The notes below the pieces were generated by a model. It ran no database searches. It was not told the DNA's origin and saw only the letters and a program-made list of their open reading frames with translations. Positions 24,473-47,227 of a DNA stretch of 64,000 nt are shown in pieces. Every line of letters begins with the position of its first letter. Positions within the stretch are counted from its first letter, which is position 1. The translations under genes were made by a program, and so were the position numbers. This stretch comes from an uncultured Acidimicrobiia bacterium (GTDB lineage Bacteria; Actinomycetota; Acidimicrobiia; Spongiisociales; JAOTWH01), in the NCBI GenBank assembly GCA_964195995.1, contig CAXMQS010000088.1, positions 10,082 to 74,081 of the forward strand. The letters are read 5' to 3'.

Positions 24473-24877
24473 TCAGCGGGACACCAAGGGGGAAAGCTTC
24501 TTGGCTTCATTGATCCAGGCGTTCACCATGCCCTCGGTGGGCAGACGGCGCACCAGCTTCTTCGCCTGGTTGACGTCGGTCATCTTCTTCGTGAGCGAAG
24601 CTGCGCTGCGATTACGGAGTTCTTTCACAGTGTCCACACCGGCGGCCTCGAGCAGGTCGCTGTATTCGGAGCCGATCCCTTTGACCCTCATGAGGTCGGC
24701 CCGATTGACCCACACGAGGATCTGTCTCTCAGGGACGGTGGCGGCAAGACCAAGTGCCCGGCGGCCCTTGCGAGCACCGGCCTTCTTAAGAAGAGACTCT
24801 GTAGTCCGCACTCCCGCTTTGCGCAGCTTCCTGGCGTCCGTGGGGCCCATGCCCTCTATGGTGTCGATTGACGACAC
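24473..24877 (-). CDS. DUF4332 domain protein
   Basis: IEGMGPTDARKLRKAGVRT.. and VKGIGSEYSDLLEAAGVDTV helix-hairpin-helix-like repeats. Confidence 0.8.
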   Translation of the reverse strand: MSSIDTIEGMGPTDARKLRKAGVRTTESLLKKAGARKGRRALGLAATVPERQILVWVNRADLMRVKGIGSEYSDLLEAAGVDTVKELRNRSAASLTKKMTDVNQAKKLVRRLPTEGMVNAWINEAKKLSPLVSR

Positions 24878-24961: not shown

Positions 24962-25516
24962 TCAGTTGATGGACCCGGGAGCTGGCTCGGAGATCACCAC
25001 GGTGCTCGACCATTCCGGATGTGCCGCCAGCAATTCTTCGAGGCGCTGATCTGTGTCAGAAGTCATCACGTGATCCCAAAGCTGGCGTCCGAGGAGGACG
25101 GGTCCCCCTCGGACGTAGCGGTAGGTAGGGGCCGCAGCCATCTTCCCCGACGTCGCCAGGCTATCCACGAGAGCAGCAACGGTCCCCCCAGGGACCTCCG
25201 GCACATCACTGTCGATGATGAGAGCCGCGTCCGCATCGGGGAGCAAATGAGAGACCGCGTCGAGACCAACGCTGATCGCAGAGGAACGGCTGTTTCCATC
25301 CTCGTCGAGCACCGCGATGCAACCGCCTAGATCCATCGACTCGACGAGGTGCTCGTCGTCCTTACCGAACACGACAACGACCGGCTCCGCGAGATCCCAC
25401 TGCTTCGCCAGAGCGATCACGGCCTCCAACACGGGCTTGCCGTCAAAGGGAGCCTGCGGGCGTGCAGGCGAAGCGGTGATGATGACGCCAGCGATCTCTT
25501 GTTTGGCCTCATCCAC
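24962..25516 (-). CDS. MobA/MocA-like nucleotidyltransferase-fold protein with a degenerate NTP loop
   Basis: GTG 25516 lies 18 nt after the giant-gene stop. LIIDSDVPEV and PTYRYVRGGPVLL resemble MocA. The N-terminal LAAGxSxRMG loop is replaced by ITASPARPQAPFDG. Confidence 0.6.
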   Translation of the reverse strand: MDEAKQEIAGVIITASPARPQAPFDGKPVLEAVIALAKQWDLAEPVVVVFGKDDEHLVESMDLGGCIAVLDEDGNSRSSAISVGLDAVSHLLPDADAALIIDSDVPEVPGGTVAALVDSLATSGKMAAAPTYRYVRGGPVLLGRQLWDHVMTSDTDQRLEELLAAHPEWSSTVVISEPAPGSIN

Positions 25517-25533
25517 TGCGGCCAGGTTACGAC

Positions 25534-28500
25534 CTAACGGTCCTGGGCGATGGCCACGAGATAGATCTTGCCGTTCTTGTACTCGAAGTGGGCCATCCAA
25601 GACCCGGTCACGCCGTCGCGGCCGAAGGACATGAAGTGGAAGTTGTGGAGCTCCGTCGGGATGAGTGCAGAGACGAGGATCGGCGTATCGATCGCAGGCT
25701 CGGGCGAGACGGCGGCGGCCGCCAGGAACGGCTCAGCGATGGCCTCGGTGAAGTCGACGCTATGGAAGGGGATGCTGCGGCCTGCCACGACCGCCTCGAT
25801 GTCCTGGGTCCGCACAACCACGGGCGAGCCCCCAAGACCAATAGCGAGTCCGCGCTCGCCGACGAGGGATCCGACTGATCCCTCGTCGGCGAAGGCGTTG
25901 CGCATCCGCTCGATGATGGCGCCAACCCTTTCGTCCTCGACGAACTCTTCGTCGGTGACCTGCTCTGTGAGGTAGTAGAAGTCCACCCAGCCGCTTCGGT
26001 CCCCGGCCTCGATCTCTATCCAGTCGATCCCTTCGAGTGGTCGCACCTTCGAGATAGCAACGATGTCGCGTGCCGTCGGACTGAGGTGGTGCCTGATCTT
26101 CGAGTCATCTCCCGGCTCTTCGTAGATCGGAAGCGAAGACTCGGGATCCCGCATGACGACGGCGTACAAGCGACGCTTGCCGCCGAGGAACGGAAGGATC
26201 CTGACTACGGAGCTCCAGCGGAATCCTCCAAGAAGCATCGACCACATCAGGGAGATCAACAACAGGATCAACGGAATCTGGAGCGTTTCGAGGCTCTGGA
26301 AGAAGGCACCCGTGAGCAGCTCGACGCCACTTGGCGCCAAAACCTCGATGCCGTCGGGCACGTCGAAGTTGATGAGGGGACTCCCGACTTCGTTCGATAG
26401 ATCGGTCGCAGTGTCGAATACGTCACGAGGCACGACGATGAAGATCGAGGACTCGTCAGTGCCGCCCTTGCCGTCAGAAGCGCGATAGGAAACCTCGATA
26501 CTCCCGAAGAAGCCCGGGTATGCCCGGAACGTGACGGTCCCGTCGGCATTGGCCACGAAAGACCCGTTGGAGTCGCTCCCGACGGAGGCCAGGATCAGGA
26601 AGTCGCCATCTGGGTCGATGTCGTTGGCGAGCACCTGGATGTTGACCTCGAAGTAGTCGTTCACGACAAGGAAGTCCTGCATGCCGACAGGCGGATCGTT
26701 GAGGGGGAACACCCGGACGTCGACCGCCGCCGAGGACGTGCCGCCGTTGCCATCGGAGATGGTGTACCTGAAGTGATCGATTCCGGTGTAGTTGTGGGCT
26801 GGCGTGTAGGTCACTTGCCCGCCGACATCGATGGTCAGGGTCCCGTGTTCGGCCGCAGTCACCGCGGTGACGAACAGGCTGTCACCGTCTGGGTCAGAGT
26901 CGTTGAGGGTGAGCTCGAAAGTCCCCGTCGAGTCCTCGTAGAGCACGTATGCGTCGTCGACCGCAAATGGCGGCTTGTTCTTGGCCTCGATCGACAGTGT
27001 CACCCTGACGGGCTCCGAGAAGGCGAGGCCGTCGAACACCCGGTAGGTGAAAGAGTCGTCGAAGTCGTTGTCGGCGCTATGCGCATAGGTGAACGAGCCG
27101 TCCGAATTGAGAGTCAGCGTCCCTCGGATCGGCAGGGCCTCGATGACAGAGGCGATCGGGTCGCCGTCTGGGTCCGTGTCGTTGGAGAGGACGCCTGGAG
27201 CGCCGATGACCATCGTGTCGTACTGGACCAAGTCGTAGTTGTCCGGAAGGCCCGTTGGCGGCCGATTGGTGTTGAGCACAGTGAGGCTGAAGGCGGTAGA
27301 TGCCGAGAGGCCTCCAGGGCCCGTGACCGTGACCGTGATCACGTAGACGCCGCTGTCGTCATACCCCGGAGTGCCGCTGATCAAGCCAGACGCCGGATCA
27401 ATCACCAGGAACGGAGGTAGTCCGATGGCCGAGAATGTCAAGGGGTCGCCGTTGATGTCACTCCCCGTCGCCGTGACGGCAAAGGGATCGATTTCGGAGA
27501 TCGTCGCATCCGGGATGGGATCGATGGCCGGCGGGTCGTTGACAGGAACCACGACGACGGTCACGTCCGCCCAGCCGCTCCAAGCCCCATCGTTGTCCTG
27601 TACCCGATAGGCGAAGGAGGTCGACCCGTTCCAATCGCCGACCGGGCTGAAGTCGAACGTGCCGTCGGCGTTGTTGGTGACGGTCCCGATGGTGCCGGTG
27701 TCGTCGAGCTGCACGGAAGGCGCGAGCAGCGTCCCATCGATGTCGGAGTCGTTGCCGAGGACGCCTCCGGTGGTGAACGGGACGTCCTCGGGTGTGTTGA
27801 ATGCCGGGCCCGAGTCGTCGACAGCGATTGGCGGATCGTTGACATCGCCTACCGTGACGCTGACCGACGCCCAGTTGGACCAGGCTCCAATGTCATCCTG
27901 AACGCGATAGTCGAACGAGGTGGTGCCGTTCCAGTCGGCTGCCGGACTGAAGTCGAAGGTCCCATCGGCGTTGTTGATGACGGTTCCGATGGTGCCGGTG
28001 ACATCGAGCTGTACCGAAACCGGGACCAGCGTGCCGTCGATGTCGGAATCATTGCCGAAAACGTCTCCGGTGGTGAAGGGCGTGTCCTCCAGGGTGTTGA
28101 AGGCGGGACCCGAGTCGTCGATCGCCACCGGTGCGTCGTTGACCCCAGTGACGGTGATGGTCACAGTGGCGGTGTTGGAGACACCAGAGTGGGAGTCGGT
28201 GGCTCGGTAGGTGAAGGTGATGTCACGGTCCTCGCCCAGCGCCAGGTCCTGGAAGTCGGTGCCGGGATCGAAGTCGAAGGTGCCGTTGACCGCACCCAGG
28301 GCCGCGGCGCCTTCACCGACACCCGGTGGGGTGACAATGGCGTAGACCAAGGTGGTGGGATCGTCGTCGGAGTCGACGTCGTTGGAGTCGAATGACCCAG
28401 TGACGACGGGGCCATCTTCGGTGGCGTTGTCAGAGACGTCTTGGGACACCGGTGCGTCGTTGACCCCAGTGACGGTGATGGTCACAGTGGCCCAATTCGA

Positions 28501-31500
28501 CCAGTCACCATCGTCGTCCTTAACCCGGTAGTCGAAAGTAGTGGTCCGGCTGTCGCCAACGGCCAAGTCGTGGTAGCTAGCACCGGGGTCGAAGTCGAAA
28601 GTGCCGTTGGCGTTGTTGGCGACAGTGCCCACCGTCGCCGCGTCGTCCAGCTCGACGGAGGATGGATCGAGGATGCCGTCTGTGTCGAAATCGTTACTGA
28701 GTACGTCTGCCGTCGTGAACGACGTGTCCTCGTCCGTGCTGAAGCCAGCCGGTCCAGGATCGTCAACCGCCGTAGGCGGATCGTTGATGTCGTTCACCGT
28801 GATGCGGAACACCTGCGTCGGCGAGGTGTTGTCGTTGGGCGCAGGCGCACCGAGGCCCGAGTCAACCAACTCGATAGTTATGTCGGCAAATCCACTCAAT
28901 GCCGGTGTCGGCGTGAACGTCAGCGTTCCGGTCGGCGACAGTGCAGGGCCCACCGAGAACAGGCCGGGGTTGGTGTTCGTAACGATGTTGAAGCTGACCG
29001 TCTGCGGCGGCACCTCATCCGGTGGCCCCTCCAAGATGGCAGTGGCCCAAGCCACGAAGGTCTGCGGTGGTGCATCCTCAGCTACAACGACGTCGGCACC
29101 CTTGGTGAACGACGGCTCATCGTTGATGGCGGTGATGGTGATGTTGAAGGTCTGGGTCGGTGACACGTTGTCGTTGGGTGGGACGTTGGATCCCGAGTCG
29201 GTGAGGTAGATGTCGACCGAGGTGGTGCCGTTGGCGTTGGCCGCAGGGGTGAAGGTCAGGTTGCCAGTGGCGGGGTCGACCGCCGGCTGGGTGCTGAACA
29301 GGGCGGGGGTGGCTGCGGTGACGGTGAAGGTCAGGATCTGTGCCGACTCGTCGGCGGGACCCTCGGTGATGCCAGTAGCCCAGCCACCACCCAACAGGTA
29401 GGCGCCGGAGTCCTCGTCCACAGTGACATCGGCACCCTTGGTGAACGACGGCTCATCGTTGACGGCATCGATGGTGATGTTGACGGTCGCAGTGTCGGTA
29501 AGTAGACCGTCCGATACCGTGTAATCGAAGGTGTCGCTCCCGTTGAAATCGCCAGGAGGGTCGTACACGAGTTCGTCGTCGGTCGGGTCGCCAGGCGTGC
29601 CCATGACGTCGAGGGAGATCGTTCCTCCGTTGGCGGAGACAGCATCGAAGCTGTCTATCTGCAGGGCATCGATGTCGGCATCGGTGTCGTTCGCCATGAC
29701 GTCGACGTTGACTGCTGTGTCCTCATTCGTAGATGGGGTGTCGTCGTTTGCGATCGGTGCAACGTTGACGTTGCGGTTCGGCCCGAATTCCGAGGTGTCC
29801 TTGGTCACTGAATCAACTGATATCGCCGATGCCGAATCACCAGCAGCCAGGGCCGCCGTTACGAACGGCCCCCAATTGCCGAGGCCGTCGGCCGTAACGA
29901 AACCGAGGTACTCGACTCCCTCGCCGAAATCCGAACCGCTCAGCGTGTCTCCGAGCCCGGCAACGGCCCGATAGATCTCGACCCGCGAGTTGGGGCATGC
30001 CAAGCCGCTCATAGTCGTGGTCCCTGTGACAAGCACAGCACTCGTGATCAGCGGCGAGTCCGTGCCGAGGTTGCCGTCGCCGACGACGGTGCCGCAGGTA
30101 TTGGCGACCGAGCTATCTCCAAGAAGGATGCCATCGTTGGGGGTGATGCCGTCGCCGGTCGCCGTGCTACCCCCGGCAGCCACTAAATCGATGGCCGGAC
30201 CACCGTTGCTACCGAAGTCGTTGCGCGTCACCTCATTGCTGATTGCAGCATCAGACACGATTACTCCGGGACCGACATTGCCGGTAAGGACATTGAGTCG
30301 AACGGTGTTGCCGTCATCGTTGACTCGGATAGCGCCCGTCTGAACGGCGCGTTGCCCAGACCCGGTAATGGTGTTGTTCTCGATCAGCGTTCCGGTCATC
30401 GTTCCGTCGATACCCATCGCTCCAGAGTCGACTATGAGATTCCCACTGATCGTCCCACCGGAGCTGCCGCCGCCGTGGTTGATGCCATCTGCAATGGTGT
30501 CAACCTGGCCCGACTCCCTTACCTCGTTGCCTGAGATAGTGGTGCCGGTTGTGTCCGACGCGACGATGGCGTCGTTGTCCAAGAAGCCGATGAGGTTGTT
30601 GCGCACGCTCGCGCCATCGGTCTCCCTGAGGTAGACGCCCCGCAGCGTGCTGACAACAAGGGGGTCAACGAACCCATCCGGTGCTGAACCGATGACGTTG
30701 CGTTCGATGATGATCCCACTGGGCCTCATGAGCGGTACGCCGGCCATGTCAATGCCTCCAGCGAATCCCCAGGTGGCGAGATCGCGGATGGTGTAGTTGT
30801 CGGGAATCTGACCGGTGCTGGCATTCGAGGAGAAGGAGAACCCAACACCTATGCCCGAATCAGATCGCATCACTCCGAGCTCGGGCTTGGCGACTTGAGG
30901 CAAGGCCACCGGGCCTGCACCTACGTTCATGCCACCTGCGGCATTGGCTCCCAGAGAACCCAAGTTGGTGTCGCGAACCGTGACGCCGTCCGTCAGGTCG
31001 AATGCAGTGCCGTCGATGGTTGTATCTGCGTCGTGAGTGTCGGCCAGGGTCTCACCGACAGCACTGCCGGTGTAGTCGATCTCCCACCATTTATTGAGGC
31101 CGGGGAGATCGTCGGCGTTGGTGGGAACCGCCGGGACGAACCGCATGGCGTTGCCGAGGTTGATGGCGTTGGCATTGCGAATGAACTGATCAAGCGAACC
31201 CTGATATGAGCTCGCCGTGTAGCCGGCCGCCCACGCGGGCTCGAGATTCGTGACTACGTTGAAGCTGAAGCCGAAGTCGACAGATGCCACCCCGCCCGAC
31301 ACGCTCACCCTGGCAATGTGCTCAGCGGTAGTCAGGCCAGAAGCGTCATCATCGGTGGCTCCATCGACGCCTCCAAAGCAGGGTCCGACCCCCATCCGCT
31401 CCGCCGTGCCACCGAGCCCATCCGCGCACCAGCCTCCGTTCGGTCCGTAGGTCTGCTCGGCCCACGGCGTTGTCGAGAGGTAGGAAGCATGGATACCAGC

Positions 31501-33402
31501 AGATGGAGAGACGGTGAGAGAATCCACAACCACCCAGTAGTCGACCGGCAGCCCTGCCGTGAGGGTGTAGCTGCCGCCCGCCCCGGTTACAGCCGTGTCG
31601 ACCAACGTGTCAGCACCGTCGGGAATTGCGTTGCCGTTGTCCTGGTAAAGGCGGACGTCAACTCCGGCCCGACCCGGGTTGGCGCCGTCGCCGATGGCCT
31701 CGGCCCCGGGGAGCAGGTTGCCGTCAACATCCTCAAACACTGTCCCTGCGATCTGGCATCCTGAAAGATCGCTGGTCGAATTCGAAACCGAGGTCTGCCG
31801 GTAGCCGGCGATCGCCGAAGGGACCACCGCGGTCTGGGTGGTTTCGCCGGTCGGGAACTGGGCCTGGACGATGTAGGCACGGTCGGAGCCGAGGGGAAGT
31901 CCGAAGTGGACGGCCAGTGGATCTTGCGAGCCGTGACCTCGCCCACCGTTCACGTCCCGCACGCCGCTCAGAGCCGTCACCCCGTCACATGCGAAGAGCT
32001 GCAAGGTGGCTCCGACCGCGTCACGGTTCAGCCCCCCGCCGAGGTCATGGAGAGCCCGCACGAACATGTAGTCGATCGCCCCGGTTTGGACTGCGTCGTT
32101 ACGCCACAGTTCGTTGGCCGCTGCCGTTTGGCTGATGAGAACGTCGAGGTCACCGTCGTTGTCGTAGTCGGCGAACGACGCCCCTTCGCCATCACCCGCT
32201 CCGCCGACAAAGGTATTGGCTCCAAAGGTGATCGACCCGGGAGTCGAGGTGTTCGTATACAGGAGATCACCGGCGATAGTGTCGGTGAGAAATAGATCCA
32301 GGTCGCCATCATTATCGGTGTCACCACAGGCGGCACCATCGATGATGCTGCCCCCCGGGACGACCGGCACTCCGGTGGCGGTGAACGTGCCGACCGGTCC
32401 CTGCCGGTAGACCTGAGTCGTTGGGTGGTCGGTCCAGATGATGTCGAACAGCCCGTCGTCATCGAAATCGCAGAAGGCGACTGCTCCTTTGTTGGTGTTG
32501 AGGACGGCCACATCAAACCCACCCGCCACGAACGAACCACCGGTGTTCGCCCACAGGTCGACAAGGCCCTCCTTGCGCCCGAGGATGTCGACGTCACCGT
32601 CGCCATCGAAGTCTCCGACGGCGGAGTAGTCGCCGGAGGCGGCCACTTCCGGGAGACCGATCCCGTTGGGATCGCCGTTGGGGGTCCACCAGGTGAACGT
32701 GCCGGTGCCGTCGTTGTCCCACAGGTCGATGCCGAAGTCGTGGTTATCCATGATGATGTCGAGGTCGCCGTCGCCGTCGTAGTCGAGCAGGCCACCACCC
32801 TCCAGGTTGAAACCGCTAAGGGCGTCTGGCATGTCCAGCAGCACCACCGGGTTGCCTCCCGCATCACCGAAACCGTACGGTGGCACTCCGGCCGGGCCCT
32901 TGTTTATCCACACCGACAGGCGGGTGATCGCCTGGGTGATGAGGTCGACATGCCCATCGTTGTTGACGTCACCCCACACCACCTGCCGCCGATCATCAAC
33001 CCCTGCCAAGTTGGGCGTAGCGAGGCCGGGGGCATGAGTTGCCGTGACGTTCACGAACGAGGGGTTGGGGAGGCTGCAGTCGCTCCGGTAGAGCTGGGTG
33101 TACTGGTCAGGCCCGACCGGGTTTTCGGTGGTGACGATTACGTCGAGGCACCCGTCCTCGTTGAAGTCGGCCCAGGCCAGGCCGGCGTCCTTGATGCCAA
33201 CCGTTTCGAGACCCACCGGAGTTGCCGCGAACGCGGCGAAGGCCGCAGGAGCCACCAGAGTCAGGTTGCCGAGGGCGATCGTAAGAGCCGCGAACAGGGC
33301 GAACGGGCGCTCTATCCCCTTGGCGAAACGAACCCCCCTAGAGCGCGGTGAGGGCCCGGGCGTAGCCGGGCCAGGATCTGAGGTGAGTCTTACCCATCTC
33401 AT
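25534..33402 (-). CDS. giant (2,622 aa) single-pass surface protein: FG-GAP/VCBS + ASPIC/UnbV, SdrD-B-like, parallel beta-helix, ~11 cadherin/Ig-like modules, TM, cytoplasmic SH3-like tail
   Basis: Signal-like N-terminus. Repeated DxDGDGDxD FG-GAP motifs. NRDAVGA..GSQDPLAVHFGL is UnbV_ASPIC-like. ISGN/IENN beta-helix turns. Repeated VNDAP/VNDPP-bounded modules. TM segment LQIPLILLLISLMWSMLLGGF. Confidence 0.9.
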   Translation of the reverse strand: MRWVRLTSDPGPATPGPSPRSRGVRFAKGIERPFALFAALTIALGNLTLVAPAAFAAFAATPVGLETVGIKDAGLAWADFNEDGCLDVIVTTENPVGPDQYTQLYRSDCSLPNPSFVNVTATHAPGLATPNLAGVDDRRQVVWGDVNNDGHVDLITQAITRLSVWINKGPAGVPPYGFGDAGGNPVVLLDMPDALSGFNLEGGGLLDYDGDGDLDIIMDNHDFGIDLWDNDGTGTFTWWTPNGDPNGIGLPEVAASGDYSAVGDFDGDGDVDILGRKEGLVDLWANTGGSFVAGGFDVAVLNTNKGAVAFCDFDDDGLFDIIWTDHPTTQVYRQGPVGTFTATGVPVVPGGSIIDGAACGDTDNDGDLDLFLTDTIAGDLLYTNTSTPGSITFGANTFVGGAGDGEGASFADYDNDGDLDVLISQTAAANELWRNDAVQTGAIDYMFVRALHDLGGGLNRDAVGATLQLFACDGVTALSGVRDVNGGRGHGSQDPLAVHFGLPLGSDRAYIVQAQFPTGETTQTAVVPSAIAGYRQTSVSNSTSDLSGCQIAGTVFEDVDGNLLPGAEAIGDGANPGRAGVDVRLYQDNGNAIPDGADTLVDTAVTGAGGSYTLTAGLPVDYWVVVDSLTVSPSAGIHASYLSTTPWAEQTYGPNGGWCADGLGGTAERMGVGPCFGGVDGATDDDASGLTTAEHIARVSVSGGVASVDFGFSFNVVTNLEPAWAAGYTASSYQGSLDQFIRNANAINLGNAMRFVPAVPTNADDLPGLNKWWEIDYTGSAVGETLADTHDADTTIDGTAFDLTDGVTVRDTNLGSLGANAAGGMNVGAGPVALPQVAKPELGVMRSDSGIGVGFSFSSNASTGQIPDNYTIRDLATWGFAGGIDMAGVPLMRPSGIIIERNVIGSAPDGFVDPLVVSTLRGVYLRETDGASVRNNLIGFLDNDAIVASDTTGTTISGNEVRESGQVDTIADGINHGGGSSGGTISGNLIVDSGAMGIDGTMTGTLIENNTITGSGQRAVQTGAIRVNDDGNTVRLNVLTGNVGPGVIVSDAAISNEVTRNDFGSNGGPAIDLVAAGGSTATGDGITPNDGILLGDSSVANTCGTVVGDGNLGTDSPLITSAVLVTGTTTMSGLACPNSRVEIYRAVAGLGDTLSGSDFGEGVEYLGFVTADGLGNWGPFVTAALAAGDSASAISVDSVTKDTSEFGPNRNVNVAPIANDDTPSTNEDTAVNVDVMANDTDADIDALQIDSFDAVSANGGTISLDVMGTPGDPTDDELVYDPPGDFNGSDTFDYTVSDGLLTDTATVNITIDAVNDEPSFTKGADVTVDEDSGAYLLGGGWATGITEGPADESAQILTFTVTAATPALFSTQPAVDPATGNLTFTPAANANGTTSVDIYLTDSGSNVPPNDNVSPTQTFNITITAINDEPSFTKGADVVVAEDAPPQTFVAWATAILEGPPDEVPPQTVSFNIVTNTNPGLFSVGPALSPTGTLTFTPTPALSGFADITIELVDSGLGAPAPNDNTSPTQVFRITVNDINDPPTAVDDPGPAGFSTDEDTSFTTADVLSNDFDTDGILDPSSVELDDAATVGTVANNANGTFDFDPGASYHDLAVGDSRTTTFDYRVKDDDGDWSNWATVTITVTGVNDAPVSQDVSDNATEDGPVVTGSFDSNDVDSDDDPTTLVYAIVTPPGVGEGAAALGAVNGTFDFDPGTDFQDLALGEDRDITFTYRATDSHSGVSNTATVTITVTGVNDAPVAIDDSGPAFNTLEDTPFTTGDVFGNDSDIDGTLVPVSVQLDVTGTIGTVINNADGTFDFSPAADWNGTTSFDYRVQDDIGAWSNWASVSVTVGDVNDPPIAVDDSGPAFNTPEDVPFTTGGVLGNDSDIDGTLLAPSVQLDDTGTIGTVTNNADGTFDFSPVGDWNGSTSFAYRVQDNDGAWSGWADVTVVVVPVNDPPAIDPIPDATISEIDPFAVTATGSDINGDPLTFSAIGLPPFLVIDPASGLISGTPGYDDSGVYVITVTVTGPGGLSASTAFSLTVLNTNRPPTGLPDNYDLVQYDTMVIGAPGVLSNDTDPDGDPIASVIEALPIRGTLTLNSDGSFTYAHSADNDFDDSFTYRVFDGLAFSEPVRVTLSIEAKNKPPFAVDDAYVLYEDSTGTFELTLNDSDPDGDSLFVTAVTAAEHGTLTIDVGGQVTYTPAHNYTGIDHFRYTISDGNGGTSSAAVDVRVFPLNDPPVGMQDFLVVNDYFEVNIQVLANDIDPDGDFLILASVGSDSNGSFVANADGTVTFRAYPGFFGSIEVSYRASDGKGGTDESSIFIVVPRDVFDTATDLSNEVGSPLINFDVPDGIEVLAPSGVELLTGAFFQSLETLQIPLILLLISLMWSMLLGGFRWSSVVRILPFLGGKRRLYAVVMRDPESSLPIYEEPGDDSKIRHHLSPTARDIVAISKVRPLEGIDWIEIEAGDRSGWVDFYYLTEQVTDEEFVEDERVGAIIERMRNAFADEGSVGSLVGERGLAIGLGGSPVVVRTQDIEAVVAGRSIPFHSVDFTEAIAEPFLAAAAVSPEPAIDTPILVSALIPTELHNFHFMSFGRDGVTGSWMAHFEYKNGKIYLVAIAQDR
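26430..29770 (-). repeat. in-gene tandem array of ~290-320-nt modules encoding cadherin/Ig-like domains
   Basis: 27541-27840 and 27841-28140 align in register with a 300-nt period. An exact 45-nt repeat occurs at 28126-28170 and 28447-28491. Confidence 0.75.
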
Positions 33403-34868
33403 GGGAGAGCACCGGGCTCTCGATAGGGCTCGGCTGCCGCGATGTCGAGCGACACCGGATCGTTATATCCCGACGGCAGCGTGGTGCGGCTCAGCGGAGC
33501 CACGCTCGGTTTGCCGACGCTGACAAGAGGCATGACGACCACGAAGCTGGTCAACCCGTTCTCGCGGACGTATTGGACGGAGCCACCCATGCCGTCGGCG
33601 AGGGCGCGCACGATGGAGAGCCCGAGGCCAACGCTGCCGAGGAGGAGCGGCTGATGGCCCTGGTGCATGAAACGCTGGAACAGCCGCTCCTCCAGATCCT
33701 CGGGGATGCCATCGCCGTCGTCTACGACGGAGAGCGTGAATCGACCGTCGACGACCTCTGCCGAAACACTGAGGTCGGGGCCGCCGTACTTGCGAGCGTT
33801 GGAGATGAGATTGCGCAGGATCTGGCGGAAGCGGAGGCGGTCGGCGCGGATGGTTGCCTCGACCGACGAGACATCGACATGCAGGCCACCGCGCAACATC
33901 GGCCCGACGACTTCCTCGATCTCCTCGGTGATCTCGACATTCTCGAATGTGTAGTGCAAGGCGTCGGCGTCGAGTCGAGCGGTCGTCAGCAGGTCGTCGA
34001 CCATCCGCGCCAGGTCTGTCGACTCCGAGACGATCATGTTGATCAGCTCGGTTGCAGACTCGGAGCCGGCGACCGCCGGATCCTCCTCGAGCAGCAGAGC
34101 CAACCCGTAGATCGAAGTCAAGGGCGTTCGCAGTTCGTGAGAAGCGTTGGCCACGAAATCTTCGCGAGCCTTGCCGAGCTCGCGTTCCGTGCGCAGGGTG
34201 CCCTCGAGGTCCGTCTGCTTGGCCTGTCGTCGCGCGAACTCGCGGAAGATGAGGATGACGGCGGTAGGCACGAGGAAGGCGACGAGGAAGCCGGCCAGCA
34301 TTCTCATCCACGCCAGGAAGGCGTCAGACGAAGCGACCTCCGCGTTGAGCAGGTCGCGCTCGCGAACCAGTTCCAACTGGAGCAACGTCCACGACTTGTC
34401 GAGATCGGACTCGGCCAGCATGCGGGCCGCAATCGGATCGTTGGCTGCCATCAATCCCAGCACCGCGTGGCTTTGCTCCGTGAACTCGCCCACCGCACCA
34501 CGGAGGGACCCATCGAGCGACCGACGACTCTCGAGCTCATCCATGGCGTCGCCCAGGAGAGCGAGCGCCGACTCGGTCTCGCTTCTCGAGATCTCGAGCT
34601 GATCGGAGGAGTTGGAGCCGATGGCGAGATCGACGTTGGCGACGACGACGCCGAGCGCCAGCTGGGCCCTGGCGGTCGTCGCGACGCGTAGTGCCTCATC
34701 GGCTGAGTGGAGTGCTTCCGCACTATGGGTGATACGTCGCGTTTGCTGGGCAACAGCGAAGATCATCGCGAAGACAAGGAGCATCACGACGCCGATCACG
34801 AGGGTCAGGAGAAGTGGACGACCCAGTCGCGATAGCGAACTCGGCTCAGAAGCAGTGTCGGTAACCAC
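33399..34868 (-). CDS. membrane sensor histidine kinase (2 TM, helical extracytoplasmic sensor)
   Basis: H-box SHELRTPLTSIYG; N/G boxes NLISNARKYG, DDGDGI, GLGLSI. Its stop overlaps the giant-gene ATG (ATGA). Confidence 0.9.
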   Translation of the reverse strand: MVTDTASEPSSLSRLGRPLLLTLVIGVVMLLVFAMIFAVAQQTRRITHSAEALHSADEALRVATTARAQLALGVVVANVDLAIGSNSSDQLEISRSETESALALLGDAMDELESRRSLDGSLRGAVGEFTEQSHAVLGLMAANDPIAARMLAESDLDKSWTLLQLELVRERDLLNAEVASSDAFLAWMRMLAGFLVAFLVPTAVILIFREFARRQAKQTDLEGTLRTERELGKAREDFVANASHELRTPLTSIYGLALLLEEDPAVAGSESATELINMIVSESTDLARMVDDLLTTARLDADALHYTFENVEITEEIEEVVGPMLRGGLHVDVSSVEATIRADRLRFRQILRNLISNARKYGGPDLSVSAEVVDGRFTLSVVDDGDGIPEDLEERLFQRFMHQGHQPLLLGSVGLGLSIVRALADGMGGSVQYVRENGLTSFVVVMPLVSVGKPSVAPLSRTTLPSGYNDPVSLDIAAAEPYREPGALP

Positions 34869-34931: not shown

Positions 34932-34955
34932 TCGATGGAACCGGGTCCGGACGGC

Positions 34956-34986
34956 ACAGAAGGCGGCTCACGTGACCGCCTTCTGT
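34956..34986. promoter_or_regulatory. 31-nt near-perfect palindrome ACAGAAGGCGG-c-TCACGTGA-CCGCCTTCTGT
   Basis: 11-bp outer arms plus a palindromic TCACGTGA core. Same spacer as the 14-bp palindrome. Confidence 0.3.
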
Positions 34987-35078
34987 CGCCTTACTCCGCC
35001 CGCAAGATCGGGCCGATAAGTAACGATGAGGCTAGCGTTCCGTTGAGTGCCGCGTCGAGTCGAGAAGGAGGAGTTCAG

Positions 35079-36194
35079 GTGATCGTCGGAGTCCCGACCG
35101 AGATCAAGAAAGAGGAGTACCGCGTCGCCCTCACCCCGGCCGGCGCCAGGGAGCTCTCGTCTGTTGGCCACAGGGTGCTTGTCCAACAAGGCGCCGGCGC
35201 CGGCTCATCGTTCGATGACGAGGCATTCATCGAGGCAGGAGCCGAGATAGTCACCACGGCACAGGAGGTCTTTGCGGCCTCCGAACTCATCATCAAGGTC
35301 AAGGAGCCCCAGCTCGACGAGATACAGATGCTGAGAGCCGACCAAACCCTCTTCACGTTTCTCCACATCGCTGCGTATCCCGAGATGGGCAGGGCTCTTC
35401 TCGCGAGTGGGGCAACGGCCATCGCCTATGAAACGGTGGCACTCGCGTCCGGGACCCTCCCGCTCTTGGCACCGATGAGCGAGATCGCAGGTCGGATGGC
35501 AGTACAGGCCGGCGCCCACCATCTCGAAAGGCCACACGGCGGACGCGGTGTCTTGCTTGGTGGTGTCCCTGGCGTTGCCCCGGCCAGAGTCACCGTGCTC
35601 GGCGCCGGCCGCGCCGGCACGAACGCCGCGATGATCGCCGCTGGCATGGGTGCCGAAGTGATCGTTCTCGATCTCAACGTCGAACCGCTCCGACACATCG
35701 ACGAGATGCACCTCGGGCGCGTGGTTACCGTCCGCTCGTCGCTCTTCGCCATCGAGCAACACGTCTCGACGTCGGACCTGGTTGTCGGCGCGGTGCTCGT
35801 CCCAGGTGCCCGCGCCCCCGTTGTGGTGCCCGAAGCCGTCGTCGAGGAGATGCGACCGGGCAGCGTCGTCGTCGACATATCTATCGATCAGGGCGGGTGC
35901 ATCGAGACCGCGCACGAGACCACTCACGCAGATCCTGTGTATGTCACCCACGACGTCGTCCACTACGCGGTCGGCAATATCCCCGGAGCAGTTCCCAATA
36001 CCTCGACACACGCACTCACTAACGCAACACTTCGCTACATCGTCGCGCTTGCCCAGGGCGTTGGATCAGCGGTCACGAAACACCCCGAGCTGCAACTTGG
36101 CGTCAACGTCGCTGGCGGCAAAGTGACGCACTCGGCCGTCGGCGAGTTCCTCGAAGTACCTGTCGTCGATCCGCTCGAGGTACTCGCCGGCTGA
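35079..36194 (+). CDS. ald: alanine dehydrogenase
   Basis: GTG 35079 gives (M)IVGVPTEIKKEEYRVALTP, the canonical Ald N-terminus. GAAGGAGGAG lies 6 nt upstream. The tracked N-terminal extension was rejected. Confidence 0.9.
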   Translation: MIVGVPTEIKKEEYRVALTPAGARELSSVGHRVLVQQGAGAGSSFDDEAFIEAGAEIVTTAQEVFAASELIIKVKEPQLDEIQMLRADQTLFTFLHIAAYPEMGRALLASGATAIAYETVALASGTLPLLAPMSEIAGRMAVQAGAHHLERPHGGRGVLLGGVPGVAPARVTVLGAGRAGTNAAMIAAGMGAEVIVLDLNVEPLRHIDEMHLGRVVTVRSSLFAIEQHVSTSDLVVGAVLVPGARAPVVVPEAVVEEMRPGSVVVDISIDQGGCIETAHETTHADPVYVTHDVVHYAVGNIPGAVPNTSTHALTNATLRYIVALAQGVGSAVTKHPELQLGVNVAGGKVTHSAVGEFLEVPVVDPLEVLAG

Positions 36195-37087: not shown

Positions 37088-38134
37088 ATGAATGTGAAGG
37101 CTACGACTGTCGAACAGCACGAGTTTGCGATTCGGCGACGTGGATACGACCAGGCGGAGGTTGATGCGGTGATGGGCCAATTGGGCCGATCGCTGCGCAA
37201 CTACGAACAGGAGAAGAAGGACCTTGAGGCGAAGCTCGCGCATGCTGGGCCCTCCGAAAAGAAGGCCTCTCCTCCTGCGAAGCGAGGCCAGGGACGAGCG
37301 GCGAAGCACCGCACGGAGAGTGAACTGATGAGACATACGGGAGATGCGGTGGAAGGGGCCCGTCAGCAGGCCGAGGCGATCCTGGCCGAAGCCAGGGCCG
37401 CGATCGACAAGATGTTCGACAGCATCGCAAGCGAGGCCAAGCAGGTGTTGGCCACGGCAGAGAGCGACGCTGCAAAGCACAAGGCCAAGATCGAAGAGGA
37501 GTCCGCCAAGCTGCTCGCCGACTCCCTCGCTAAGGCTGATGCCACCAAGAAGGCGGCAGCGACCGAGGCCGCTGAATTGCGAGCCAAGGCTGCACGCGAT
37601 GCGGCCGCCACGGTCGCGAAGGCACAAGCAGAGCATGACAAGCTGGCGACCCGCATACCTGAACTGCGCACGGCCCTCAGCCAATTCGAAGCACAGGTGC
37701 ACGCGCTCACCAACGTGCCCGTTGCCGACCTCAACGAGGAAGAGGCGACCCAGGCCGCTACCAAGGCTGCTGAAGTCGAGGTAACGATCGATAGCGATGC
37801 CGCGACCGGCGCCGCCAAGGCAGCGCTCGCCACAGCGACCTCGGTCTCTGTCGCAGCACCCGACGGATCGGGCACGCTGCCCGCAGCCAGAGATCTCGTC
37901 AATCTCGACGAGTACCGCGACCTGAAGGCATCGCATGTCGAGAAGGAGGCTCCGGTTCCAGCCCCCGCCAAGCCAGAACCAGCGCCCAGCCCGGCCGCTA
38001 GCGACGGCGCTCCGCTCGAACGGCTGGCATCGACCCACGTGGCCAGCCGGGGCATGCCAACTGACAAAGAGACCATCTACCAGCGACGGGGTGGAGGTCT
38101 GCGGCGTCGGATCAACTCACAAGGGGATGAGTAA
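37088..38134 (+). CDS. DivIVA-domain coiled-coil protein (paralog 1)
   Basis: N-terminal VEQHEFAIRRRGYDQAEVDAVM matches the DivIVA motif F..x..RGYDxxEVDxF. Long Ala/Glu/Lys coiled coil. Confidence 0.85.
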   Translation: MNVKATTVEQHEFAIRRRGYDQAEVDAVMGQLGRSLRNYEQEKKDLEAKLAHAGPSEKKASPPAKRGQGRAAKHRTESELMRHTGDAVEGARQQAEAILAEARAAIDKMFDSIASEAKQVLATAESDAAKHKAKIEEESAKLLADSLAKADATKKAAATEAAELRAKAARDAAATVAKAQAEHDKLATRIPELRTALSQFEAQVHALTNVPVADLNEEEATQAATKAAEVEVTIDSDAATGAAKAALATATSVSVAAPDGSGTLPAARDLVNLDEYRDLKASHVEKEAPVPAPAKPEPAPSPAASDGAPLERLASTHVASRGMPTDKETIYQRRGGGLRRRINSQGDE

Positions 38135-38251: not shown

Positions 38252-39319
38252 ATGAAGGTACGTAGCGAGGACCTGTCAAAGGTCCGATTCCCAGAGGGCC
38301 GTCGCGGTTACGACGCCGACAAGGTCGATGCCGTCCTGTCCGGAGTCATCGAGACGCTCCGAGAGTACGAAGCAGCTGATGAGGCGCTCCATCGCACATT
38401 CGTAGAGGCTCAGCGGATCAAGGACGAGATGGTCGCCGAGGCCAGCGTCGAAGCTGACCAAGTGCGCGCTGAAAGCGAGAAGGCCAAGGCCGCCAAGCAG
38501 ATCGAGGCCGAAAATATCGTTGCCGCAGCCATCGAAGACGACTCCAAGCAACGCGCCTCTACTGAGGAGAACGTCGCCAAAGCGAAGGCGGAAATCGATC
38601 GGCGCATGGTCGAAGCAGAGGGTCTGGTCGCCGAGAAGGTGAAGGCCGCAGACCGCGACGCAGCCTCCGTCCGCACCGACGCTGCCAAGGAATCCGATGC
38701 CATGAGGACCGAGGCGAAGGCTGAGGCAAGCGCCACCGTCAACGCTGCCAAGAAGGCATCGACCGACATGCTCACCGCGGCCAAGGCGGAGCACGCTGAA
38801 CTCAGTAAGAAGGTCCCACAGCTTCGCACCGCCGTTAGCGACATTCGGACCCGACTCATCGAACTCGCTGAGTCGACTCAGGATGAGCTCGGTGTTGTCG
38901 ACGGGATGATCGATCTGGCCTCAAACGAGGCCGTCCCGGCCATCGCCAAAGACGCAACCCAGGACGACCTGAAGCCGGTGGCTGAGGCCACTCCCCCCAA
39001 GGAGGTTCCCCAGGCCCAGCCGACAGCCGAGCAGACGGCAGCGAAGAGCGAGTCGAAGGCTGCCAAGAGCAAGCCGAAAGCAGACGAGTCACCGGCCACG
39101 AAGGTCTCCGCAGAAGCCCCCGAGCAGACGGCTGCACCCGCGGCGAAGGTTGCGGACGCCAAGGATCTCGACGAATCGGTCTTCGACCCAACGAGTCTGA
39201 TGGCGCTGGCAAGCGATCTCGACGAAGCGGTGCCTGGAGACGAATCCAAGGAGTCCTTCTATGGTTCTGGGCTCAGACGGCGCCTAACCGAGGGCACGAA
39301 GACCAAGAAGGGGCGTTAG
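38252..39319 (+). CDS. DivIVA-domain coiled-coil protein (paralog 2)
   Basis: LSKVRFPEGRRGYDADKVDAVL. Shares AEH..L...P.LRTA.S and the C-terminal GLRRR motif with paralog 1. Confidence 0.85.
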   Translation: MKVRSEDLSKVRFPEGRRGYDADKVDAVLSGVIETLREYEAADEALHRTFVEAQRIKDEMVAEASVEADQVRAESEKAKAAKQIEAENIVAAAIEDDSKQRASTEENVAKAKAEIDRRMVEAEGLVAEKVKAADRDAASVRTDAAKESDAMRTEAKAEASATVNAAKKASTDMLTAAKAEHAELSKKVPQLRTAVSDIRTRLIELAESTQDELGVVDGMIDLASNEAVPAIAKDATQDDLKPVAEATPPKEVPQAQPTAEQTAAKSESKAAKSKPKADESPATKVSAEAPEQTAAPAAKVADAKDLDESVFDPTSLMALASDLDEAVPGDESKESFYGSGLRRRLTEGTKTKKGR

Positions 39320-46366: not shown

Positions 46367-47227
46367 CTAGTCCTTAGTTGGCTGCGCGATTCGCTCGCGA
46401 GCGAGTTCCACGTAACCGGCATCCGTGTCATAGCCAACGAAGTGCCGTCCAGTTTCGAGCGCCGCCAGCGCAGTGGCCCCAGCACCCATGAAAGGGTCGA
46501 GCACGAGATCGCCCGTGAACGTGTACAGCTCAATGAGACGGCGTGGCAGCTCGACCGGGAACGGCGCAGGGTGACCAACCCGTTTGGCCGACTCGGGACG
46601 GATGTTCCACACCGACAGAGTCGATGAGACGAAGTCGTCCTTTTCGATCGTGTCATCGCCCTTGCGGATACGACGGAAGGTCTCCTTGCAGCCTACGACG
46701 ACGTACTCGTGGACGTCCCGTAGCGTTGGGTTCTTCGCCGACTGCCAAGATCCCCACGCCGTCGATCCCCCGGCCGCCTTGGCCTTCTGCCAGATAATCT
46801 CGCCTCGCAAGAGGAAACCAACGTCCGTTAGCAATCCAGCAACGTGGTGGTTGAGCGGCAGGTAAGGCTTGCGGCCGAGATTGGCAACATTGACGGCCAC
46901 CCTCCCGCCGGGTTCAAGCACCCGATAGGTCTCGGCCAGCACCCTCTTGAGGAGTTCCAGATACTCGGACAGGCTGAGGTCGGCGTCGTAATCCTTGCCG
47001 ACGTTGTATGGAGGCGAGGTCACCATGAGGGAAACGCAGTTGTCGGGGATCTGCAACATCGATTCGGATGATTGATGAAACAGCTCGTCGATGATCGCAG
47101 GTGGCGGATCGACGAGAGGGCTCAGTTCCTTGGCTTCGGCCTGTACTGCGATCTTGCGCTCGTAGAACTCGGAAGCGTCGTGGCTCTCGCGTTTGCCCGA
47201 GCCAAAGGACGAGGTCGAGGTCGGCAT
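46367..47227 (-). CDS. beta-class DNA methyltransferase (N4-cytosine or N6-adenine; TSPPY variant)
   Basis: Motif IV TSPPYNVGKDY precedes motif I LDPFMGAGATA. Sampled lines are ~50-58% GC, against 63-73% in sampled neighbouring lines. Confidence 0.85.
   Translation of the reverse strand: MPTSTSSFGSGKRESHDASEFYERKIAVQAEAKELSPLVDPPPAIIDELFHQSSESMLQIPDNCVSLMVTSPPYNVGKDYDADLSLSEYLELLKRVLAETYRVLEPGGRVAVNVANLGRKPYLPLNHHVAGLLTDVGFLLRGEIIWQKAKAAGGSTAWGSWQSAKNPTLRDVHEYVVVGCKETFRRIRKGDDTIEKDDFVSSTLSVWNIRPESAKRVGHPAPFPVELPRRLIELYTFTGDLVLDPFMGAGATALAALETGRHFVGYDTDAGYVELARERIAQPTKD

Follow-up and report, generated by a model that had tools for sequence, protein, structure and literature searches.

A stretch of 64,000 nucleotides (nt) of DNA from an uncultured Acidimicrobiia bacterium (GenBank assembly GCA_964195995.1, contig CAXMQS010000088.1, positions 10,082 to 74,081) was analyzed, and this whole stretch is called the window below. 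Between positions 24962 and 34868 of the window, three genes lie head to tail on the minus strand and encode a sensor histidine kinase, a giant membrane protein (the partner protein below), and a MobA/MocA-like nucleotidyltransferase. An earlier inspection of the letters alone, referred to here as the sequence-only reading, had described these genes as one tightly packed operon, and the order and strand were verified from the coordinates and the open reading frames (ORFs). The third-position GC content is high in the three ORFs (0.78 to 0.80 for the kinase and giant genes). The features of the kinase and the partner, with lengths in amino acids (aa) and transmembrane abbreviated as TM, are as follows.

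33399 to 34868, minus strand: sensor histidine kinase, 489 aa, GTG start (Pfam HisKA and HATPase_c)
34302 to 34757, minus strand: extracytoplasmic sensor domain of the kinase, residues 38 to 189, four-helix bundle (AlphaFold, Foldseek, and conservation)
34239 to 34301, minus strand: second TM helix (TM2) of the kinase, residues 190 to 210, consensus RFLVAFLVPTAVILIYRE (hydropathy and alignments)
33399 to 33402, minus strand: ATGA shared by the kinase stop (TGA) and the giant-gene start (ATG) (direct sequence reading)
25534 to 33402, minus strand: partner protein, 2,622 aa, with signal peptide, mosaic ectodomain, juxtamembrane motif, TM helix, and SH3b plus NTF2-like tail
31753 to 33225, minus strand: FG-GAP/VCBS and ASPIC-like module, about residues 60 to 550 (five FG-GAP_3 matches and a borderline UnbV_ASPIC match)
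29758 to 31752, minus strand: module containing a right-handed beta-helix, about residues 551 to 1215 (Beta_helix and NosD at residues 922 to 1080)
26383 to 29685, minus strand: cadherin-like/Big_9 'tandem-95' array with one He_PIG, about residues 1240 to 2340 (Pfam and NCBIfam)
26278 to 26322, minus strand: juxtamembrane motif ELLTGAFFQSLETLQ, residues 2361 to 2375, invariant in the closest tails
26221 to 26277, minus strand: single TM helix IPLILLLISLMWSMLLGGF, residues 2376 to 2394, hydropathy 2.2, followed by the basic stretch RWSSVVRILPFLGGKRR
25963 to 26169, minus strand: SH3b-like beta-barrel of the tail, about residues 2412 to 2480 (AlphaFold pLDDT 91.8 and Foldseek)
25537 to 25962, minus strand: NTF2-like/cystatin-like alpha+beta domain of the tail, about residues 2481 to 2622 (AlphaFold and Foldseek)

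The kinase matched HisKA at residues 234 to 301 (61 bits) and HATPase_c at residues 343 to 448 (76 bits) in Pfam, and its translation shows the H, N, G1, F, and G2 boxes (SHELRTPL, NARKYG, DDGDGIP, and GLGLSIV). It therefore belongs to the HisKA type, with a phospho-acceptor histidine in the dimerization and histidine phosphotransfer (DHp) domain and the catalytic boxes. Hydrophobic helices were found at residues 19 to 37 and 190 to 208 by hydropathy, and they flank a helical extracytoplasmic domain, as the sequence-only reading had proposed; the segment between them is about 150 aa long. AlphaFold gave four long helices for this segment, with a predicted local distance difference test (pLDDT) value of 88. 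The model resembles the four-helix-bundle ligand-binding domains of Tsr, Tar, PcaY, and NarQ (target-normalised TM-score of 0.6 to 0.77 in Foldseek). Neither this model nor that of the partner tail gave a Foldseek match at an E value of 1e-3 or below, and the two folds were assigned by probability, root-mean-square deviation (rmsd), and topology. No HAMP domain was found in the window kinase, in which TM2 leads directly into the DHp helix. The conservation scores of the kinase were 0.75 for TM2, 0.76 for DHp, 0.69 for membrane-proximal helix 1, and 0.44 for the distal bundle. TM2 is as conserved as the catalytic core, and the non-catalytic conservation clusters beside the membrane, with the distal part of the sensor being variable. 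The MtrB equivalog model NF040691 scored 83.5 bits against a cutoff of 450 and ranked below PnpS, PhoR, and WalK for this kinase in NCBIfam.

The coupling of the kinase gene to the giant gene was examined in the window and in related loci, which are designated by L numbers. The overlap of the kinase TGA with the giant-gene ATG had been noted before and was confirmed. A basic N-terminal extension of the giant protein is kept at the protein level in L010 and L014, and the overlapping start is therefore probably real. A word-indexed search with the kinase returned more than 1,200 matches at an E value of 1e-20 or below, mostly presumably generic histidine kinases. Among the 120 best matches, more than 100 shared 48 to 60% identity over about 90% of the length, and those with a named source were from Acidimicrobiia. 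In seven neighborhoods found by exact protein, a long same-strand gene of 2,164 to at least 5,708 aa follows right after the kinase, with a small ORF intervening in one of the seven. A genome scan with one genome per species, using an alignment of the sensor and TM region as the query, gave 66 loci, nearly all from bins labelled Acidimicrobiia or Actinomycetota. Coupling was counted in the 58 loci where the sequence continues for 390 nt or more past the kinase stop. In 52 of these loci, a same-strand ORF started no more than 100 nt from that stop; the downstream ORF overlapped the stop in 34, and the overlap was the identical 4 nt in 23. In 45 loci, the downstream same-strand ORF extended to the end of the available sequence. 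The sequence-only reading had staked its proposal on recurrence of the genes in other genomes, and for the kinase and the giant gene such recurrence was found across the loci, including paralogous loci with unlike flanks. These results indicate that the two genes are conserved and tightly coupled.

The pair occurs in several settings: beside a divergent alanine dehydrogenase (AlaDH) gene as in the window, after the gene order mfd-mazG-REC-eno-divIC-ppx-REC (REC, receiver), and among other flanks. Some single genome bins carry two or three copies of the pair. In a neighbor-joining tree of 60 kinases, the 'AlaDH' clade was separate from the clade holding the 'ppx/REC' loci. The trees of kinases and tails showed the same groupings, and their pairwise distances were correlated (r = 0.95 over nine non-independent pairs). 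By these comparisons, the pair has been duplicated and inherited as a unit. A promoter and terminator scan of the operon found no promoter-like sites, and terminator-like hairpins were found only within coding sequence. Four of the related operons (L028, L052, L059, and L072) are in bins labelled Gammaproteobacteria, Acidobacteria, or Kiloniellaceae, probably as a result of binning or labelling errors.

The partner protein begins with a signal-peptide-like segment at about residues 31 to 58. Pfam matches to the protein comprised FG-GAP_3 (five), Beta_helix/NosD, He_PIG, and Big_9/Cadherin_4/Cadherin_5 (eight to nine), and the NCBIfam 'tandem-95 repeat' model scored 400 bits. UnbV_ASPIC scored 23.3 bits against a cutoff of 23.4, and no SdrD-B domain was reported by Pfam at an E value of 0.01 or below. 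Among the modules that had been proposed for the ectodomain, FG-GAP, beta-helix, and cadherin-like modules were thus recovered, ASPIC was borderline, and SdrD-B was not supported. A tandem duplication in the cadherin-like array (27596 to 28143; 300 nt, 1.8 copies, 79% matches) indicates ongoing expansion of ectodomain repeats. The ectodomain also differed strongly among relatives. In close relatives with kinases 89 to 91% identical, the tail was 88% identical, and ectodomain modules were gained, lost, or multiplied. In two of them (L007 and L014), the FG-GAP/ASPIC module is missing, and the signal peptide leads into the next module. Partners of relatives have between one and three copies of the beta-helix-containing module, with three in tandem in L007 and two in L014. 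The lengths of the partners were 298 aa (L025), 441 aa (L065), 518 aa (L054), 1,166 aa (L061), 2,048 aa (L056), 2,717 aa (L031), and at least 5,708 aa (L012). The shortest partner consists of a first TM helix, an 11-residue loop with the juxtamembrane motif, a second TM helix, and the tail, so that only about 11 residues lie outside the membrane. The conserved unit can do without a giant ectodomain, since the L025 partner is almost without one, and these comparisons suggest that the ectodomain is a fast-changing insert within a constant frame. It is placed between the signal peptide or first TM helix and the TM helix before the tail, and in the window it is about 2,300 aa long.

Known classes of large surface proteins were also considered for the partner and rejected. 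An RTX/type I giant adhesin of the LapA, BapA, or SiiE type was dismissed because model NF045619 scored 26 bits against 180 and no transporter genes flank the locus. A C-terminal sorting signal (LPXTG/sortase, PEP-CTERM, or GlyGly-CTERM) was rejected because a folded 228-aa domain follows the motif, the helix, and the basic cluster, and the rhombotarget and myxosortase models scored far under their cutoffs for the giant protein. Twin-arginine export was dropped because the partner has no twin-arginine motif. Identity with an MtrAB-LpqB-type lipoprotein was excluded by the lack of a lipobox and of a Germane (GerMN) hit in the giant protein.

In contrast to the ectodomain, which was gained and lost in modules, the membrane-proximal part of the partner is constant. 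The short, amphipathic juxtamembrane motif reads ELLTGAFFQSL in the window, and its general form, [AS][FIV][FLY]Q[ST], is recognisable in L006, L025, L054, L061, L065, and representative proteins. It is the sole extracytoplasmic element retained in the minimal partners. The giant protein has one hydrophobic segment, at residues 2376 to 2394, with exactly 228 residues after it, in agreement with the sequence-only reading. The motif, a TM helix beginning with proline, a basic linker, and the tail were found in all 11 loci with a visible 3' end of the partner gene (the window, L013, L018, L025, L031, L053, L054, L056, L061, L065, and L078). Apparent tail-less partners in L018, L028, L053, L058, and L078 were rejected, as in-frame stops, masked bases, probable frameshifts, or contig ends were found instead; for L034, another apparent exception, the ORF map suggests that one giant gene has been broken up into overlapping ORFs. 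In L013 (17987 to 18703), the partner stops just past the TM helix, and a separate ORF of 221 aa, which begins at that stop, encodes the tail. Judging from L054, the split is more likely a frameshift in a long-read assembly than a true one, and this ORF was not used as evidence of a free-standing tail protein.

The tail was modelled by AlphaFold from a 41-sequence alignment with a pLDDT of 91.8 and a predicted template modelling score (pTM) of 0.87. Its first 70 or so residues form a five-stranded SH3-type barrel that matched 4krt and 2kt8 with a probability of 1.00 and an rmsd of 2.5 to 3.4 Å over 72 to 77 columns, at E values of only about 0.02. The last 140 or so residues resemble NTF2-like/cystatin-like folds (target-normalised TM-score of about 0.45 to 0.5). 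No Pfam or NCBIfam model covers the tail. Its sole Pfam match, to SH3_4, was sub-threshold (E value of 0.19; 11.9 bits against 24.1), and the NTF2-like domain matches no Pfam family. Two matches in a word-indexed search had suggested a near-orphan domain, which was refuted by an exhaustive profile search: it gave 509 representative proteins (sequence clusters at 50% identity) at an E value of 1e-3 or below and 210 at 1e-10 or below. In every family member, the match to the SH3b plus NTF2-like module of about 220 aa ends at the C terminus.

Family members were compared for cysteines and charge with a trimmed domain profile. In the members with a preceding TM helix (n = 83), the hydrophobic segment is 19 to 23 residues long, and the net charge is +3.2 after the helix versus -0.1 before it, being higher after the helix in 81 of the 83. 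Cysteines are absent from the domain in 48 of these 83 members, two or more occur in 3, and a Cx2-7C pair occurs in none. Among the members with a lipobox or no TM helix (n = 50), 13 have no cysteine in the domain, 35 have two or more, and 21 have a Cx2-7C pair. These statistics make the TM segment look genuine and the tail look cytoplasmic, as had been proposed. Together with the two-helix form of L025 and the signal-less L013 ORF, they predict that the tail of the giant protein is cytoplasmic and that the lipoprotein branch is exported. An origin of the tail from a fused downstream lipoprotein, with its signal peptide turned into the TM helix, was rejected, as the basic residues lie after the helix and not before it.

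In the lipoprotein branch, the signal peptide contains a lipobox, and a linker rich in Thr and Ser is also present. Of five proteins tested from this branch, three exceeded the Pfam cutoff for SH3_3 (29 to 35 bits against 27), and the sole TM-preceded tail tested (P0123) was sub-threshold. The cysteine-rich SH3b/NTF2 branch forms the C terminus of Germane-domain lipoproteins. In L081, a response regulator exceeds the MtrA equivalog cutoff of 300 bits with a score of 301. Next to it is a HAMP kinase, for which MtrB was the best model, at 258 bits and under the cutoff of 450. A lipoprotein with Germane, SH3_3, and NTF2-like domains begins 2 nt after this kinase, at the position of LpqB. L082 shows the same order of regulator, kinase, and lipoprotein with one gene inserted. 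LpqB is described as being encoded right after mtrB and as a likely periplasmic modulator of MtrB, and TapA is reported to interact with MtrB (PMC12818412). The SH3b/NTF2 module thereby appears to recur beside kinases in two topological guises, which supports a role as a kinase partner.

The sequence-only reading had also stated that no response regulator accompanies the kinase. A search of all six-frame ORFs of the 64 kb with a home-made hidden Markov model of the receiver domain found no stand-alone response regulator, and confident receiver domains were found only within a hybrid kinase at 1172 to 4099. At the window locus, the gene upstream of the kinase is the divergent alanine dehydrogenase gene and not a cognate regulator. 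The statement therefore holds for the window but not beyond it, as nine related loci (L016, L017, L018, L021, L028, L030, L043, L047, and L061) carry a receiver-only gene upstream of the kinase. These genes have about 130 to 175 codons and lie on the same strand, 80 to 155 nt before the kinase; in L018 and L061, a tail-bearing partner is present downstream as well. The linked regulator is CheY-like and has no DNA-binding domain, which argues for a protein-protein output over a transcriptional one.

Other signalling genes were observed in these regions. A second receiver-only protein of 150 to 176 aa is encoded between mazG and eno in L016 (5686 to 6138) and L018 (5640 to 6170) and also in L017 and L028. 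It lies about 3.5 kb upstream of the operon of receiver, kinase, and partner, which places two single-domain regulators in one housekeeping stretch. In the window, the 975-aa hybrid kinase at 1172 to 4099 (plus strand) has HisKA, HATPase_c, one or two receiver domains, and Hpt. A soluble-looking 404-aa HisKA/HATPase_c protein at 6400 to 7614 (plus strand) has a C terminus that is weakly receiver-like (E value of 0.029). No DNA-binding regulator was found near these two kinases.

The third gene of the operon and the neighboring genes were examined in the same loci. Their positions in the window are as follows.

24962 to 25516, minus strand: degenerate MobA/MocA-like nucleotidyltransferase, 184 aa, GTG start at 25516 (NTP_transf_3)
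24473 to 24877, minus strand: DUF4332 (helix-hairpin-helix) gene (Pfam, 134 bits)
34935 to 36194, plus strand: divergent alanine dehydrogenase/PNT gene, 66 nt from the kinase start (domain search; same layout in relatives)

The nucleotidyltransferase gene is separated from the giant gene by a gap of 17 nt, its first base being the 18th after the stop, as previously described. Its product has the NTP_transf_3 fold (64.6 bits against a cutoff of 27), with a match starting only at profile position 17, and scored 52 bits against 186 with the MocA equivalog TIGR03310. The nucleotide-binding signature LAAGxSRRLGxPKQL is replaced by ITASPARPQA with a 7-residue deletion, so that the glycine-rich loop, the arginines, and the lysine are missing. 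This signature is complete in five of the nine aligned sequences (L013, L031, L054, L056, and L065), and the L013 protein scored 123 bits over the whole profile. It is lost with the 7-residue deletion in the window, L005, and L003, and L001 is intermediate. The gene had been read as degenerate, which is confirmed for this narrow lineage only. The ratio of nonsynonymous to synonymous substitution rates (dN/dS) was 0.12 versus L005 and 0.24 versus L003, with dS near saturation, and by this measure the degenerate gene is still under purifying selection. It may have a lineage-specific non-catalytic role.

The nucleotidyltransferase gene follows the partner gene at a spacing of 17 to 80 nt in the window, L003, L005, L031, L054, L056, L065, and the place of P0078. 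It follows the split gene in L013 and an inserted gene in L001, and no such gene comes after the tail in L018, L025, L053, L061, and L078. The gene inserted in L001 (1426 to 2586) encodes a 386-aa protein of baeRF_family10/Host_attach, a bacterial release-factor-like family, between the tail-bearing gene and the nucleotidyltransferase; in L002, the gene in this place is cut off by the end of the contig. The DUF4332 gene follows the nucleotidyltransferase wherever downstream sequence is available, in eight of nine other places (L001, L005, L013, L031, L054, L056, L065, and the P0078 place); the L003 contig ends right past the nucleotidyltransferase gene, leaving the DUF4332 position out of view. 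The window DUF4332 gene is 92% identical to its L005 counterpart (dN/dS of 0.065). The flank beyond it is conserved as well: among the loci checked, the same hypothetical and HTH_3 genes lie downstream in the window, L001, L005, L013, and the P0078 place, and the same acyltransferase gene is also downstream in the window, L001, and L005. The sequence-only reading had counted the nucleotidyltransferase as a core part of the system. This was not upheld, as the gene is confined to the 'AlaDH' clade, is absent after five tails, and is canonical in five of nine sequences. The nucleotidyltransferase and DUF4332 genes are clade-specific neighbors inherited with the flank, perhaps co-transcribed, and not parts of the unit. 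Likewise, the alanine dehydrogenase gene marks the chromosomal context of the window paralogue.

Some further features of the flanks were observed. Directly upstream of the kinase in L010 (8480 to 9829) and L011 (652 to 2001) are genes for CoxS-like (Fer2/Fer2_2) and CoxM-like (FAD_binding_5) subunits of a molybdenum hydroxylase. The kinase with these neighbors is 57% identical to that of the window, and a large subunit of the hydroxylase is absent from view. The placement is curious, given that the downstream neighbor in that clade is a MocA-like molybdenum-cofactor enzyme. In the window, two adjacent genes of about 350 aa (37088 to 38134 and 38252 to 39319, both on the plus strand) have weakly DivIVA-like N termini (E value of about 1e-5, below the Pfam cutoff), and both are kept in the closest relatives, L007 to L009. 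An N6/N4 DNA methylase gene at 46367 to 47227 (minus strand) has no obvious restriction partner among the nearby ORFs scanned.

Altogether, we consider it on balance probable that the kinase and the giant protein form a conserved two-gene signalling unit of Acidimicrobiia, in which a kinase with a four-helix-bundle sensor is paired with a bitopic partner of variable ectodomain. The size range of the partner, combined with a constant helix and inner domain, suggests a signalling pair of kinase and partner that has not been described before, and not a plain adhesin. Several observations weigh against such a unit. Conservation of the operon fits simple co-expression equally well, and the congruence of the kinase and tail trees partly mirrors the shared species phylogeny. 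The placement of the tail in the cytoplasm is a prediction from sequence statistics, and the nearest relatives that can be recognised for it, namely SH3b domains and the lipoprotein branch, function outside the cell. Two of the four lipoprotein homologues examined (L080 and L083) have no nearby kinase. An adjacent regulator is absent in most upper-clade loci and in all loci of the 'AlaDH' clade, including the window. All of the related loci come from binned metagenomes, and several of them contain frameshifts, in-frame stops, or masked stretches.

The principal rival explanation is that an ordinary giant adhesin shares an operon with the kinase, that the two proteins do not touch, and that the tail only anchors the adhesin; the kinase would sense an unrelated ligand and steer the adhesin or other genes through an unlinked regulator. 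The modules of the ectodomain are typical of adhesins, and the four-helix-bundle sensor resembles domains that bind small ligands. However, partners with next to no ectodomain, as in L025, L065, and L054, are still encoded beside the kinase, and conservation among partners is found in the juxtamembrane motif, TM helix, and cytoplasmic domain rather than in the adhesive modules. The overlap of stop and start suggests co-translation and not regulation of one protein by the other, and the adjacent regulators have no DNA-binding domain. Co-expression alone, which we regard as doubtful, is thus weakened by the minimal partners and the receiver-only regulator. The absence of any functional link, with the adjacency reflecting gene order in a slowly rearranging part of the chromosome, appears highly improbable. 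Many flanking housekeeping genes are also conserved, but the pair persists amid wholly different flanks (L012, and the context of L016 to L018 and L028), is duplicated as a unit, and keeps the 4-nt overlap in 23 loci.

Two further alternatives concern the components of the unit. In a four-part module of ectodomain, adaptor tail, kinase, and pseudo-nucleotidyltransferase, the last would be an adaptor or effector bound to the tail. Such a module is in keeping with the close spacing of the nucleotidyltransferase gene to the partner gene in the window and seven other places, with its purifying selection, and with the cytoplasmic location that the enzyme would share with the tail. We nevertheless consider it unlikely, given the five loci that lack the gene after the tail, the baeRF_family10 gene inserted in L001, and the canonical enzymes of five loci, which leave a pseudo-enzyme only in the narrow lineage of the window. 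The adjacency is explained by collinearity, because the whole flank (DUF4332, hypothetical, and HTH_3 genes, with the acyltransferase gene in closer relatives) is conserved. Improbable to a similar degree is an extracytoplasmic tail without a stop-transfer helix, in which the SH3b and NTF2-like domains would bind peptidoglycan or the kinase sensor, as proposed for LpqB and MtrB. SH3b domains typically bind the cell wall, and the lipoprotein branch, with its lipobox and CxnC pairs, is clearly exported and is found at the LpqB position. The giant protein differs in having the hydrophobic segment followed by positive charge that was seen in 81 of 83 members, and its branch has largely lost the cysteines and has no CxnC pair. 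In addition, the two helices of L025 with their basic termini predict that both ends are inside, and the separate L013 tail ORF has no signal peptide.

In the favored two-gene unit, the partner would pack on the kinase through the TM regions and those next to the membrane, where both proteins show their strongest conservation outside the catalytic parts. The ectodomain would serve as an exchangeable antenna or adhesin, and binding or pulling there may modulate the activity of the kinase; alternatively, the kinase may act on the tail of the partner. The phosphoryl signal would exit via a receiver-only, CheY-like regulator, which in the window genome would be encoded elsewhere, and the kinase core or this regulator would probably dock on the SH3b/NTF2 tail. 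Information could flow outside-in, inside-out, or both ways. More tentatively, the unit may be an integrin-like bidirectional receptor, with the partner and the kinase joined in a single transmembrane complex. Tension or contact on an exchangeable ectodomain of up to 5,000 residues would be relayed to the kinase via the juxtamembrane motif and the TM helix, and the phosphorylated CheY-like regulator would bind the tail and alter the surface protein. If this were true, a His-Asp relay would use the same giant membrane protein as its input and output, with no transcription factor. The SH3b/NTF2 module would then be a general kinase-partner domain working on either side of the membrane, as the MtrB lipoprotein or as the cytoplasmic tail.

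Next, we compared the unit with known systems. A kinase with an accessory envelope protein encoded alongside it is already known in principle from MtrB-LpqB (PMC12818412). As in MtrAB-LpqB, a membrane kinase gene is followed by the gene of an accessory envelope protein, here with the ATGA overlap of the window that is conserved in relatives, and in Acidimicrobiia, the protein encoded in the place of LpqB has at its C terminus the SH3b plus NTF2-like module that also forms the giant tail. Unlike that system, the window kinase is not MtrB, having a four-helix-bundle sensor and no HAMP domain, and no MtrA-type DNA-binding regulator is present at the window locus. The window partner is a bitopic non-lipoprotein with a module predicted to be cytoplasmic and an ectodomain that ranges from 0 to more than 5,000 aa among relatives.

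Kinases controlled by membrane accessory proteins of the same operon include WalK with YycH/YycI and LiaS with LiaF. These systems and MtrB-TapA share the action of membrane accessory proteins on kinases, but their accessory proteins are not known to carry a giant modular ectodomain or an SH3b/NTF2-like cytoplasmic domain. LapA of Pseudomonas is a type I secretion substrate that stays lodged in a pore of the outer membrane until a periplasmic protease, controlled by cyclic di-GMP, releases it. The LapA/LapD/LapG system likewise ties a giant repeat adhesin to a dedicated transmembrane signalling device encoded nearby, whereas here the setting is monoderm, the adhesin-like protein itself spans the membrane, and the signalling protein is a histidine kinase. 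Integrins and the yeast proteins Msb2/Hkr1 and Wsc1 resemble the partner by analogy only, in combining a large extracellular domain, one TM helix, and a short signalling tail. Integrin alpha chains carry FG-GAP repeats; the homology is limited to this repeat type, which is absent from the partners of the closest relatives, and a bacterial His-Asp relay is used here. The nucleotidyltransferases of the window and of L013, L031, L054, L056, and L065 share the fold or the full signature of MocA/MobA, respectively, but the window protein lacks the nucleotide-binding signature and scores far below the MocA cutoff. Literature searches on Acidimicrobiia giant proteins, on giant adhesins with histidine kinases, and on DUF4332 found nothing relevant, and the arrangement is undescribed there. 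The unit is best read as a new pair of kinase and accessory protein whose nearest counterpart is MtrB-LpqB and whose surface antenna is interchangeable. What is unusual is the range of ectodomain sizes, the apparent use of an SH3b/NTF2 module, predicted to be cytoplasmic here, on both sides of the membrane, and the receiver-only regulator.

How accessory envelope proteins deliver signals to histidine kinases is an open question even for the well-studied MtrAB-LpqB system. The natural series of partners from 298 aa to more than 5,000 aa separates a constant transducer (motif, TM helix, and SH3b/NTF2 module) from an exchangeable antenna, and one domain family would be used beside kinases on both sides of the membrane. 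Even if the partner were merely a co-expressed adhesin, the analysis would still annotate 509 representative clusters that have no Pfam model. For the largest genes of a widespread and almost uncultured class of marine and soil actinobacteria, these results offer a conserved function, and the unit may be a route by which a monoderm cell senses contacts of its surface proteins.

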